Position numbers and translations under genes: made by a program
Part shown: piece by piece, positions 19,272 to 59,857 of the stretch
Layout of the letters: each line of letters opens with the position of its first letter
How positions within the stretch are numbered: the stretch's first letter is position 1
NCBI GenBank assembly: GCA_951406725.2
Contig: OX597824.1
Span: forward strand, 74,586,001-74,650,000
Direction: 5' to 3'
DNA from: Octopus vulgaris
Lineage: Eukaryota
DNA length: 64,000 bases
The notes under the pieces: model-generated
The model's database searches: none
Told to the model about the DNA's origin: nothing
Seen by the model: only the letters and a program-made list of their open reading frames with translations

Positions 19272-20000
19272 ATATAAACAAGAAGGGTAGAAATATTAGT
19301 TACTACCAGGTGCCCAGCACAAAAGACGAATCAGTCATAAGACAAAAATATTATTCGTATAGAAAAATATTATTCATGTAGTAATACAATTAAAGGCTCC
19401 TAGATTAGGATGCCGAGTGCTGGGAACACAAAAAGAAGATGAACTTATCGAGAGTGAAAATCAAAAACATTTACCGACAACTTTACACCTCGGACTGATC
19501 AGTTTCTGCTTCTTTCTAGCAAAACACAGAATATGTTTGCTAAGGCTGGCTTTATCAACGAGTCGCCTAAATTGAATCGAGGTCTGCAGCGATGTGAGAA
19601 CATGTGTCGATCTCGACTACTAGCAGATCTTAACTTTTCAAATCTCTGCGCAGACGCAAAATCTACACGGCAGTATAGGGCATGCCGGGAAGAATTTTAC
19701 GAATAAATTCATCATGTAAATATGCGAATATAAACAAGAAGGGTAGAAATATTAGTTACTACCAGGTGCCCAGCACAAAAGACGAATCAGTCATAAGACA
19801 AAAATATTATTCGTATAGAAAAATATTATTCATGTAGTAATACAATTAAAGGCTCCTAAATTAGGATGCCGACTGCTGGGAACACAAAAAGAAGATGAAC
19901 TTATCGAGAGTGAAAATCAAAAACATTTACCGATAACTTTACACCTCGGACTGATCAGTTTCTGCCTCTTTCTAGCAAAACACAGAATATGTTTGCTAAG
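19272..20000 (-). mobile_element. Retrozyme-like / PLE pseudo-LTR unit, 456-bp period, ~1.6 copies, between (TA)n tracts
   Basis: 19272-19544 nearly identical to 19728-20000; non-coding; contains an HHR. Confidence 0.75.
19489..19562 (-). ncRNA. Type I hammerhead ribozyme, U3-A8 variant
   Basis: CUCG-UUGAUAA-stem II (UUAGCAAA/UUUGCUAG)-GAAA-CUGAUCAG-UC^CGAG. Confidence 0.75.
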
Positions 20001-20062
20001 ATATATATATATATATATATATATATATATATATATATATATATATATATATATATATATAT

Positions 20063-20478
20063 ATAAATGAAAGAATGGAGTCGAACGACGATTTAACAAA
20101 ATTCCTTTATTCTCGACATATGTTTCGAAGACTGCATAATCCTAATTTCGAAGGAATAAGGGGTGCATTATGCCGCCTTCTCATCAGGAAAGACAACAAA
20201 CATAAGTTCCTTGTCTTTCCTGATGAGAAGGCGGCATAATGCACCCCTTATTCCTTCGAAATTAGGATTATGCAGTCTTCGAAACATATGTCGAGAATAA
20301 AGGAATTTTGTTAAATCGTCGTTCGACTCCATTCTTTCATTTATTTATAGTAAAAAAAACACACAAATTTCCACACGTAAGCACGTGATGTCTGCTTCAA
20401 GCGTGTTTTCTGACGTGAATTTGCTACCCGGGTATCGGTTAACCGAATTATCCATACTAGGATAATTCATTCAACTAC
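20063..20478. mobile_element. PLE pseudo-LTR module with perfect 134-bp inverted repeat, in (TA)n
   Basis: Arms 20063-20196 and 20211-20344; same family at 56401-56729. Confidence 0.8.
20207..20305 (+). ncRNA. Type I hammerhead ribozyme, canonical core (mirror copy on minus strand, ~20103-20196)
   Basis: UUCCUUGUCUUUC-CUGAUGA-GAAGGCGGCAUAAU..AUUAUGCAGUCUUC-GAAA-CAUAUG-UC^GAGAAUAAAGGAA. Confidence 0.88.
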
Positions 20479-20554
20479 TATATATATATATATATATATA
20501 TATATATATATATATATATATATATATATATATGCACATATACATGCGTACATA

Positions 20555-21028
20555 CAGGGGTTGAACAAAATAATGGAAACACCTAGCATCATAGCATCAT
20601 AATTTTGAAATATCTATAAAACCATCATAAGCTTGTTTAGTTTTATGTTTTTTGTTTTATTATTGGTGTTGCTAAATATGTTTTGCTAAAATTGCTGTTT
20701 CTTTTCAGATATAATCAGAAAAATATAATTAAAATTCATTAAAATGACAGATCTATCGAACTTTCAAAGCGGTCAAATTATTGGTGCTCGTATGGCAGGC
20801 GCAAGCGTAAGAAAACAGCCGAAATGTTAGGTGTATCAAGGAGTACTGTATCGAAAGTAATGACAGTCTTTGAGAAAGAGGGAAAAACCTCATCGTCGAA
20901 ATAAAACTTCGGAAGAAAACTAAAACTCTCAGATAGGGACTCTTACGCAAACTGTTAGAAAGAATCACAAATGTACAGCTCCCAAAATTACTGCAGATCT
21001 TAATGACCGCCTCAAGAACCCAGTTTAG
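20555..21028 (+). mobile_element. Tc1-like transposon left end with decayed transposase N-terminus
   Basis: TA|CAGGGGTTGAACAAAATAATGGAAAC; from 20744 MTDLSNFQSGQIIGARMAGASV..AEMLGVSRSTVSKV (HTH)..GRK. Confidence 0.85.
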
Positions 21029-56400: not shown

Positions 56401-56729
56401 AAATAAATGAAAGAATGGAGTCGAACGATGATTTAACAAAATTCCTTTATTTTCGACATATGTTTCGAAGACTGCATATTCTCACCCTTTATTCCTTCGG
56501 AATTGAGAATATGCAGTCTTCGACATATATGTCCAAAATAAAGGAATTTTGTTAAATCGTCGTTCGACTCCATTCTTTCATTTATTTATAGTAAAAAACA
56601 CAAATTTCCACACGAAAGCACGTGATTTCTGCCCTTGGCATGTAGCTTCAACCGTGATTTCTGACGTAAATTTGCTACCAGAGTATCGGTTAACCGAATT
56701 ATCCATACTAGGATAATTCATTCAACTAC
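56401..56729. mobile_element. Second copy of the 20063 family; palindromic, HHR 5' core lost
   Basis: Arms meet inside HHR stem II (~56484-56504). Confidence 0.8.
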
Positions 56730-57580
56730 TTATACATATATATATATATATATATATATATATATATATATATATATATATATATATATATATATATATA
56801 TACATACATACATACATACATATATATATATATATATATATATATATATATATATACATACATACATACATACATACATACATACATACATACATACATA
56901 CATATATATATATATATATATATGTATGTATGATTGTATGTATGTATGTATGTATGTATGTATGTATATATAAAGAGAGAGAGAGGGGGAGACAGACAAT
57001 CATACGTACATACATGCATACATACATATTCGTATATTCGCACGAACATATATATATATATGTGTGTGTTATATATACACACGCTATTAAAACCGGAAAA
57101 ATCCTAATAAACTACTCTACCTTTGGCATTCGAGTACTATTCTTTCCACCTTGTTTTGCATTTATGTGCTTACCTCTGTGTGTATGTGTGTGTATGCGTG
57201 TGTATTACACACACACTTACACACACATATGTATGTATATATATATATATATATATATATATATATATATATATATATAAATTATTAATGAGAAGTAAAT
57301 ATATATATATATATATATATATATATATATATATATATATATATATATAGGGAGAGGAATGAAACAAACTTTCACTTCTATCTCCTCCATTAATCAGACT
57401 CCTCGTTTTACTCAGGTCCTCCATTATGAATGTAATATAATGGAAAATTCCATTACGTCAACAAGTTTGTTAAGTAAACTGAAAATAAAGATGCTTCACA
57501 TCATAAAAGCTAAATAGTATTGAGGACATTGGTAGCTTCTGAAGTTCTCTTCAAATAACACTAATAGGCTACAGAAACGT

Positions 57581-58900
57581 TTGCTTACTTCTCTTTCATT
57601 CCCCCCCTCTCTCTCTTTACTTTTCTATATTTCGTCTCTTTCATTCTCTCTCTCTCTCTCTCTCTCTGTCTCTCCATTTACTTTTCTATATTTCTTACTA
57701 TCCCTCTTTCTTTCACCCTTTTTCTCTTTCATTCTCTCTCGTCTTCATTCCCTTTTTTTCTTTATTTCTTTCCCCCTCTCTTTCATTCTTATTTTCTCTC
57801 TATCATTCATTAATGTAGCTTGTCTCTTTCTGTCATTCTCTCTTTTTCTCTATATTTCTTACCATCTCTCTTTCTTTTACCCTTTGTCTCTTTCATTCTC
57901 TCTCGTTTTCATTCCCAATTTTTTTTTTATTTCTTTCCCCTCTCGCTTTCGTTCTTATTTTCTCTCTATCATTCATTAATGTAGCTTGTCTCTCTCTCTG
58001 TCATTCTCTCTTTCTCTCTATATTTCTTACCATCTCTCTTTCTTTTACCCTTTGTCTCTTTCATTCTCTCTCGTTTTCATTCCCAATTTTTTTTTTATTT
58101 CTTTCCCCTCTCGCTTTCATTCTTATTTTCTCTCTATCATTCATTAATGTAGCTTGTCTCTCTCTCTGTCATTCTCTCTTTCTCTCTATATTTCTTACCA
58201 TCTCTCTTTCTTTTACCCTTTGTCTCTTTCATTCTCTAGTTTTTTATTTCTTTCCCCTCTCTTTCATTCTTATTTTCTCTCTGTCATTCATTAATGCAGC
58301 TTCTCTCTCTGTCATTCTCTCTCTTCCTCTCTCTCTCTCTCTTTACTTTTCTATATTTCTTACCATCTCTCTTTCTTTCACCATGTCTCTCTTTCATTCC
58401 CTCTCGTTTTCATTCTCTATCGTTTTGATTTCTTTCCTCCCTCTTTCTTTCTTATTTTCTATCTGTCATTCTCTCCCTCTCCCTCCCTCTATTTCTTTCC
58501 CTACCTTTCTTTATTTCTTTCTCTCTTTCTCTCCCCCTCTCTTTCTCTCTCTCTCCTTCTTTTCTTCTCTTTCTATATTTCTTGTCCTCTCTTTCTCTTT
58601 CCTTCGTTTCATTCATTAATGCGAATGTTTTCCGATTTTGTTTTCTCCCTCTCTTTCATTCAATAATGCAGCTTCTCTCCTTTTCATTCCTTCTCTTTTG
58701 CATCTTTCCTTCTCTATCTCTGCTTCTCTGCCTCTCTCTCTCTCTCTCTCAATTTTTCTATCTCCCCTTCTCTCTCTCTCTCTCTCTCTCCATCTCTCTC
58801 GCTGCCTCCATCCCCTCTCTCTCGCGCTCTCTGTCTCTCTGTCTCTCCTTCTCTCTCGCTGTCTCTCTCTTTCTCTCTCTATCTTTCTCTCTGTGCCTGT
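57581..58900. repeat. Polypyrimidine tract with ~166-bp tandem repeat (~3.5 units)
   Basis: CATTCATTAATG at 57804, 57970, 58138, 58285. Confidence 0.85.
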
Positions 58901-59558
58901 GTGTGTGTGAGATTTTCCTGCCTGTGTGTCTGTGTCTATGTGTGTGTGTGTCTGTGAGTTTGTGTGTGTGCATGTGTGTGTCTACCTGACTGTCTATCTA
59001 TCTATCTATCGGACTGTTTATCTGTTTCTTTGTCTGTCCGTCTGTCTGTCTGTATATCGGTATGTCTGTCTGTCTGTCTATCTATCTATCTATCTATCTA
59101 TCTATCTATCTATCTATCTATCTATCTATCTATCTATCTATCTATCTATCTAAAGCACCATTTCTTCTTTCAGTACTCTTTCGGACTCACAGCCTTTTCC
59201 TCACTCTCACTCCCCCCTCTCTGTCTTTCTCTCTCTCTCTCTCTCTCTCTTTGTAGGCTTGTCTGTTCTTGTCCTCCCACTTTCTCAAATTGCATCATAA
59301 TATAATGTTCCTTCTGAACCCTCATGTCTCACTCTCCTTCACACAGTCACTCTTTCTTTCTTTCCCTTGCAAGATAATCTTCTTCTCAATCAGGTTTTCT
59401 TAAAAACTCCTTTCCCTCTCTTCACCTTCGCTCTCCCGATCTATCTCTGTCTCTGTCTCTGTCTGTCTGTCTCTCTCTCTCTCTCTCTCTCTCTCTCTCT
59501 CTCTCTCTCTCTCTCTCTATATATATATATATATATATATATATATATATATATATAT

Positions 59559-59857
59559 ACCGGAGTAAACACATAAATGTGAAACAAGGTGGAAAAAAGA
59601 GTACTCAAATACCAGTGGTAGAGTAATATGCTTTATTTAAAGCAGCAGAAAATTCAACGGGAAACTCAGAGTAACAGGTTTTGTTGAATTTTCTGCTGCT
59701 TTACATAAAGCATGTTACTCTACCACTGGTATTTGAGTACTCTTTTTTCCACCTTGTTTCACATTTATGTGTTTACTCCGGTACATATATATATATATGC
59801 CGTTCATCGGACAGTTTTTGCAAAACTTTCCGATGAACGGCAGCGGGAAACTCAGAG
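59559..59857. mobile_element. Rearranged double-palindrome copy of the 56134 family
   Basis: Palindrome 59559-59782 and mini-palindrome 59799-59841 with CCGATGA cores. Confidence 0.8.

Follow-up and report, generated by a model that had tools for sequence, protein, structure and literature searches.

Hammerhead ribozyme modules at (TA)n repeats in the Octopus vulgaris genome: probable truncated ends of Penelope-like elements with family-wide core variants

Introduction

Type I hammerhead-like ribozyme folds are scattered among TA-rich microsatellites in a 64-kb stretch of the Octopus vulgaris genome (G000:C11:74586001-74650000; the window, that is, the whole stretch analysed), which raises the question of what these modules are and how they came to lie there. 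An initial annotation described them as a separate non-coding community of at least eight families, mobilised by enzymes borrowed from Penelope-like elements (PLEs). A hammerhead-like fold is present at each coordinate that it listed, and the modules belong to nine families (F1 to F9, Table 1), all repeated genome-wide. Our answer as to their origin is a different one. The modules are very probably for the most part 5'-truncated 3' ends of PLEs, i.e. pseudo-long terminal repeats (pseudo-LTRs), together with one 456-nt passenger, mostly placed at (TA)n; cleavage by their hammerheads is predicted to be slow and to take place in dimers or with the help of protein. The system is real, dense and already known: PLE pseudo-LTR hammerheads, occurring in (TA)n as palindromes and truncated stubs, and one non-autonomous unit. 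The new element is the core variants which characterize whole families, with letters commonly taken as invariant exchanged or altered. The role of PLE hammerheads has been described as still unknown (PMC7761336), and a 2026 octopus repeat annotation counts PLEs, the available part of its main text mentioning neither ribozymes nor hammerheads (PMC13282606).

Hammerhead motifs in the window and in the genome

A strict-core scan of the window gave six matches against a mean of 0.10 and a maximum of two in 100 block dinucleotide shuffles. A descriptor allowing any Watson-Crick pair between positions 3 and 8, which was loosened only once candidates had been seen, gave eight matches against a shuffle mean of 0.09 and a maximum of one. 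The motif is thus commoner than in shuffled sequence. No match in the window was obtained when the descriptor lacked the extra nucleotide after A9; this form was too strict. The folds at 22475, 24491, 28053 and 50169 failed the scan with stem I or III damaged or weak in the window copies, and the fold at 49338 failed because of a U at position 6; the families of these five copies were assessed genome-wide instead. Candidate cores at 2394, 23490, 24155, 33346, 35890 and 54463 failed the scans and were rejected. With Rfam, which had been proposed as a check, no match reached the gathering score, either in the window or in four further loci, and no hammerhead family was among the matches listed (150 of 245) when the window was searched at E<=1.

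Genome-wide searches were made in the 2.8-Gb, 227-contig assembly. First-look candidates numbered 529 for F1, 1755 for F2, 1242 for F3, 292 and 934 for the two F4 modules, 763 for F5, 133 for F6, 154 for F7 and 566 for F9, and exact patterns matched 5,294 times for F8 and 1,111 times for F9, with no match in the reversed control. The nine families are dispersed genome-wide repeats with hundreds to thousands of copies each. An unbiased scan, which covered 319 loci, yielded 39 distinct motif keys, 36 of them Watson-Crick at 3-8, two wobble and one mismatched; each of three shuffles gave zero or one match.

The motifs show the type I topology, the paired stems I and II and the GAAA...UH core of PLE minimal hammerheads. 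The claim of a tiny palindromic stem III was borne out by the family copies (CG, CCGG, CAUAUG, CAAUUG, CGAUCG, CUCAGAG and CUGAUCAG). Such a short palindrome fits a dimer, as in PLE minimal hammerheads; the predicted duplexes range from -1.7 to -13.6 kcal/mol and no hairpin is formed alone. In an illustrative covariation test on 12 hand-picked rows of the CCGG class, preselected for stem I pairing and a Watson-Crick 3-8 pair, 92.6% of cells were paired compared with 52.5% after shuffling.

These properties are in agreement with the PLE minimal hammerheads of Cervera and de la Pena (2014, PMC4209133): there too the fold is of type I with an extra nucleotide after A9 and a very short palindromic stem III, a genome has many families, most copies are single and truncated, inverted pairs are found and U3-A8 occurs as a variant. 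One difference is that several octopus families have stem II regions of 45-77 nt. Many hammerhead families per genome have also been found elsewhere: eight in Xenopus and six in coelacanth (PMC4209133 supplement) and 16 in a coral (PMC7229834). Outside the window, at least 12 more hammerhead families, each with its own stems and a palindromic stem III, were seen in flanks (L013, L024, L032, L064, L101, L107, L114, L125, L142, L143, L148, L181, L182, L272).

Parent Penelope-like elements

A protein search with the reverse transcriptase (RT) fragment at 55140 gave 14,557 first-look candidates genome-wide; PLEs are therefore very abundant in this genome. F2, F3, F4, F6, F8 and F9 can be linked to the 3' end or pseudo-LTR of a PLE encoding RT and GIY-YIG endonuclease (EN), the F6 link being weak. 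The F8 parent is intact, with one open reading frame (ORF) comprising RT and, at its C terminus, GIY-YIG, between hammerhead-bearing pseudo-LTRs. In L415-L417 an open frame of 1119-1200 codons has the F8 hammerhead at either flank; the one frame tested gave RVT_1 above the cut-off and a weak GIY-YIG match. The hammerhead was also found downstream on the same strand in 18 of the 25 loci retrieved by the F8 GIY-YIG endonuclease.

The parents of F4, F2, F9 and F3 are broken and have the same layout as an EN-bearing (EN+) PLE. F4 (22756 and 50169) ends an RT plus GIY-YIG element with a CA-rich 3' untranslated region (UTR; ~3 kb, L451-L453), and its module stands at both ends of the element at L452; the gene is visible in three of four long loci, and none of 20 shorter loci reaches far enough. 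F2 (20207) flanks a broken Penelope/Poseidon-type RT plus GIY-YIG gene at L152 at both ends, as F9 (56293) does a broken Poseidon-type gene at L274. F3 (22475) lies downstream of a Neptune-like RT-EN at L275 and L278, and in one of three F6 inverted pairs examined (L276) the arms flank a Poseidon-type RT remnant with a weak match (E 1e-8). A cysteine linker is present in the parents of F3, F4, F8 and the 55140 family; the provisional clade names Neptune and Poseidon rest on this linker motif, and the linker is common to Neptune and Nematis (PMC8557442).

These parents bear on an alternative close to the initial annotation, namely that the modules are mostly non-autonomous, retrozyme-like elements spreading as short cleaved or circular RNAs with PLE proteins acting in trans. 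This holds in outline for F1, a fixed 456-nt unit with tandem and inverted copies and no ORF; a tandem hammerhead array of 359-nt units is present at L418, and PLEs have been proposed as mobilisers of retrozymes (PMC7761336). However, six families run upstream into RT/EN genes and have ragged 5' ends. The alternative is refuted for F2, F3, F4, F8 and F9, and we consider it very improbable for the modules at large. Six of the nine families being truncated ends of coding PLEs, the separate community borrowing its enzyme is not upheld, and only F1 fits a non-autonomous reading; PLE-type minimal hammerheads, TA targeting and a multiplicity of families, all of which the same annotation invoked, are supported. 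The relic at 55140 had been cited as an example of the mobilising proteins. Its family carries a different hammerhead (A3-U8 or G3-C8, stem III CCGG), which is absent from the window, and the relic is therefore not the parent of any listed module.

Insertion at TA repeats

A (TA)5+ run lies within 250 nt downstream of 11 of 14 window sites, compared with 27% of random positions. Genome-wide, (TA)n was found after the 3' end in 29 of 30 F9, 27 of 30 F4 and 14 of 20 F8 loci, against ~0.2 in control spans taken for F9, F8 and A3-U8 loci. The adjacency to TA claimed for every module thus stands for these sites and for most F9, F4 and F8 loci but not for the F6 sites, which lie ~500 nt from the nearest TA run.

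The 3' ends of F9 fall at two fixed sites ~70 nt apart. Among 30 F9 loci taken in genome order, 14 contain an inversion (11 distinct insertions), each with one long and one short arm, and the inversion centres vary between copies; the 30 best F9 palindromes have 32 variants common to both arms and 40 private ones. The two 3' ends and the unequal arms match the PLE tail and the two RT start sites described previously (PMC11167929, PMC8557442). In the lizard Poseidon element PAc (Frangieh et al. 2024, PMC11167929) two RT start sites likewise lie 3' of the hammerhead and the targets are AT-rich. Neptune-type and Penelope/Poseidon-type EN+ PLEs (Craig et al. 2021, PMC8557442) share with the octopus elements the order of RT and GIY-YIG, the cysteine linker of the parents named above and the hallmarks found here, i.e. 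partial tandems, inverted 5'-truncated copies, a tail at one end and TA-rich (microsatellite) targets; the F9 tail of ~70 nt is longer than the 30-40 nt reported for them.

On the model that we propose, the GIY-YIG of the element would nick TA-rich DNA and the RT would start at one of the two fixed sites 3' of the hammerhead. It would then copy through the uncut ribozyme and usually stop early, leaving stubs. Priming on both strands, once per site, followed by joining of the cDNAs, could produce palindromes whose arms differ in length, one long and one short. As genomic copies run across the predicted cut site, their templates were uncut there.

Core variants

The canonical CUGANGA 5' core is present in F2, F4a, F5, F6 and F7 and absent in F1, F3, F4b, F8, F9 and the 55140 family. 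The statement that all folds keep the core is therefore incorrect, since six of them (19489, 22475, 49338, 50169, 56293 and its mirror) differ from CUGANGA. The folds at 19489, 22475 and 49338 are not decayed cores because their changes are family-wide. F3 has U3-A8 in 30 of 30 copies, and among 29 copies of F1 there are 16 with U3·G8 and 12 with U3-A8. C4 (U4C) was found in 20 of 20 F4b copies and, by hand count, in 97 of 100 F9 copies among the matches listed. For F8, 100 matches listed of the 5,294 were counted by hand: position 6 is U in 92, C in six and A in two, and position 7 is A in 60, C in 16, U in 16 and G in eight. U6 is present in both pseudo-LTRs of intact elements, and position 7 was again the most variable core position in 24 copies chosen independently of the exact pattern.

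Relatives of the 55140 relic have a hammerhead with stem III CCGG after the gene. Its pattern, with positions 3 and 8 left free, gave 133 matches (control 0); 100 listed matches comprised 80 A-U, 11 G-C, two G-U and seven mismatched (hand count). The pattern of a sister family with stem III CCAUGG gave 161 matches (control 0), with A-U in 91 of 100 listed, and one copy of a second G3-C8 family, with its own compensated stem I, was seen at L387. A looser CCGG pattern matched 5,086 times against 1,026 in the control. Of 100 matches listed, 19 come from a repeat that has C-U at 3-8, lacks stem II and was judged not to be a hammerhead; the other 81 include 73 with a Watson-Crick 3-8 pair (hand count). 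With its U-A, A-U, G-C and C-G families, this single genome has every Watson-Crick pair at 3-8.

In an RT tree of 16 rows (L152 and L274 were left out for low coverage), the U-A, A-U and G-C lineages and the 62330 relic lie on one side of a 99/99 branch and the F8 parent lies apart. The U-A and A-U lineages form an open fork which does not give the order of events. A tree of 58 3' UTR copies for counting G3-C8 origins was unreliable, as truncated copies brought in unrelated flanks, and no count was drawn from it. We suggest tentatively, at slightly less than an even chance, that a group of related PLE RTs walked the 3-8 pair through U-A, A-U and G-C while remaining active and that the most abundant family counted propagates with U6.

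One alternative is that the fold of the variant families has lost cleavage and is retained as a structural signal for RT binding, RNA dimerisation or start-site choice. The U6 of F8, carried by most listed copies and by intact elements, would fit such a role, as would the slow cleavage of a natural A6C variant (PMC3088659), the templates uncut at the site spanned by genomic copies, and insertion in vitro without the need of cleavage (PMC11167929). On the other hand, the 3-8 pair is important for the active conformation and has remained Watson-Crick although both of its bases changed repeatedly, and cleavage is restored in part by the engineered C3G/G8C (PMC11167929, PMC8495972). This points to selection for an active core, at least in those families, and we regard a purely structural role as unlikely, although it deserves weight.

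A further alternative is that the variant cores go back to neutral mutations in founder copies, which spread with successful elements, the fold itself being unselected. Since one master copy is enough to fix a mutation of any kind in thousands of copies, copy counts are not independent events; the G3-C8 copies were not reliably placed on the tree, their flanks being of unequal length, and more than half of the F1 copies (16 of 29) have the U3·G8 wobble. Nevertheless, independent families with unrelated stems hold U-A, A-U, G-C or C-G at 3-8, and 36 of the 39 distinct motif keys are Watson-Crick and two wobble in the unbiased scan. In F8, position 7 takes all four bases and the flanks diverge, whereas the rest of the core stays. 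We consider neutral fixation improbable.

Natural U3-A8 and U4C and the slow A6C are on record (PMC3088659), U3-A8 also in PMC4209133. The 56 motifs listed in the available part of the latter are C3-G8 except for two U3-A8 and one U3·G8, and none of these 56 has A3-U8, G3-C8, U6 or C4. G3-C8, an engineered rescue mutant in PAc (PMC11167929), is natural in this genome. No report of natural A3-U8, G3-C8 or A6U was found in the literature searched, the coverage of which was limited, some key studies being beyond its reach. Przybilski and Hammann are said to have found in 2007 that all four pairs are cleavage-competent in vitro. The A3-U8 and G3-C8 families provide natural covariation, over all four Watson-Crick states, at a catalytic pair, and the presence of A6U in an intact element of high copy number bears on the question whether cutting is required of PLE hammerheads at all. 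Such motifs escape standard descriptors and Rfam. If the 3-8 pair did walk and F8 does propagate with U6, the range of natural hammerheads would exceed that of the current CUGANGA descriptors, such cores might be hidden in some PLEs described as hammerhead-less, and the families would provide a ready natural mutagenesis series for the role of the PLE hammerhead.

Several observations weigh against PLE ends with working hammerheads as the source of the modules. The F6 parent is a weak RT remnant (E 1e-8), no RT was found near F5 (20 loci) or, beyond one weak match, near F7, the F2 and F9 parents are broken, and two F2-parent frames tested gave no RT or GIY-YIG Pfam match. Six of 20 F8 copies end away from TA. 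Stems are weak in several families (stem I of F4b; a 2-bp stem II in F9 and in the CCAUGG family), and the G12 region is irregular in one A3-U8 subfamily. Moreover, hammerhead cleavage was dispensable for insertion in vitro and no RNA ends were seen at the site (PMC11167929); the folds may therefore not cut in vivo. The A3-U8 subfamily was seen at L132, L141, L142, L144 and L149, with GUAAA or similar in place of GAAA and an insertion or loss at G12.

The non-autonomous F1 unit

F1 is the only clearly non-autonomous family and shows PLE-style tandems and inversions. In the window its core starts at 19558, with U3-A8, a long stem II, stem III CUGAUCAG and a predicted cut after 19493. The end-to-start junction of the unit is present in 25 of 30 loci, some of them representing one insertion seen twice; the loci share no sequence beyond the 456-nt unit. 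As a passenger, it would presumably be moved by a PLE enzyme. F1 is covered by contigs from three runs guessed to be RNA and from one unlabelled run; one 475-nt contig is self-closing, with the same joint as in genomic tandems.

Like metazoan non-LTR retrozymes (Cervera and de la Pena 2020, PMC7229834), F1 is a non-coding unit of fixed length that occurs in tandem with one hammerhead per unit. It differs from them in its length of 456 nt, in a PLE-type variant core instead of the canonical type I core, in partial tandems and inversions instead of long arrays, and in being known from genomic DNA. A candidate non-LTR retrozyme was seen at L418 (G000:C1:20002278-20004542) and L419, where 359-nt non-coding units are arrayed in tandem and in inverted order; every unit has a canonical-core hammerhead (stem III CCGG), and the array ends in TA.

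Features of the window

Table 1 Hammerhead modules and RT remnants in the window (positions counted from its first nucleotide)
Feature	Position	Strand	Origin or basis
F1, non-autonomous 456-nt unit (19274-19729) and partial second unit, between TA runs	19274..20000	-	non-autonomous
F2 palindrome, two canonical-core hammerheads, cores 20187 (-) and 20220 (+), stem III CAUAUG	20066..20478	.	pseudo-LTR of L152 element
F3 3' fragment, core 22507, family stem III CCGG (decayed here)	22410..22645	-	3' UTR of Neptune-like PLE (L275, L278)
F4a 3' fragment, canonical core 22786, stem III CG	22660..22930	-	
F5 fragment, canonical core 23225, 77-nt stem II region, family stem III CGAUCG	23081..23300	-	old family
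F6 left arm, core 24583, stem I damaged in this copy	24380..24620	-	
F6 right arm, core 28057, family stem III CAAUUG	27950..28235	+	
F7 fragment, canonical core 38955, family stem III CAAUUG, ~1 kb shared upstream sequence	38740..39940	-	
F8 3' fragment, core 49369, U at position 6	49247..49450	-	pseudo-LTR of intact Neptune-like PLE (L415-L417)
F4b 3' fragment, CA-rich UTR, core 50173 (U4C), weak stem I	49480..50298	+	parent loci L451-L453
Broken PLE RT fragment, 68% identity to L155 ORF, 3' UTR and hammerhead missing here	55049..56068	-	
F9 palindrome, cores 56272 (-) and 56301 (+), U4C, stem III CUCAGAG, one long and one short arm	56135..56368	.	pseudo-LTR of L274 element
F2-related palindrome, inverted inside stem II, without 5' core	56406..56730	.	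sequence
Rearranged F9 copies with truncated hammerheads	59560..59857	.	
PLE-like RT remnant in heavy decay, 25-27% identical to probes (main stretch: E 1e-5 to 2e-8)	62617..63499	+	

Some further repeats resemble parts of these modules. Two related repeated modules at 24060-24175 (-) and 54450-54560 (+) have a CUGANGA-like start and a long pyrimidine-rich spacer; they failed the scan and may be further long-stem-II hammerhead families. Repeat fragments at 35780-36500 and 33380-33900 (-) lie beside CUGANGA-like words, and no coding motif was found in them; they are possibly decayed PLE ends. An RT fragment of a non-LTR retrotransposon (40955-42566, -; RVT_1 E 5e-30) is, as we read its sequence, not a PLE. 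A broken transposase-like frame without a Pfam match lies inside the F6 inverted pair (26037-26700, +), and we take it, from its motif, to be IS1595/Merlin-like. A short frame with C2H2 zinc fingers (30070-30408, +) resembles a LINE C-terminus. A U4 snRNA-like match at 12269-12386 (-), with 36.7 bits, falls below the gathering score and is probably a pseudogene or the head of a SINE. Tandem copies of a SINE-like repeat of 184-216 nt are found at 37360-37798, 45977-46348, 47108-47658 and 60690-61500.

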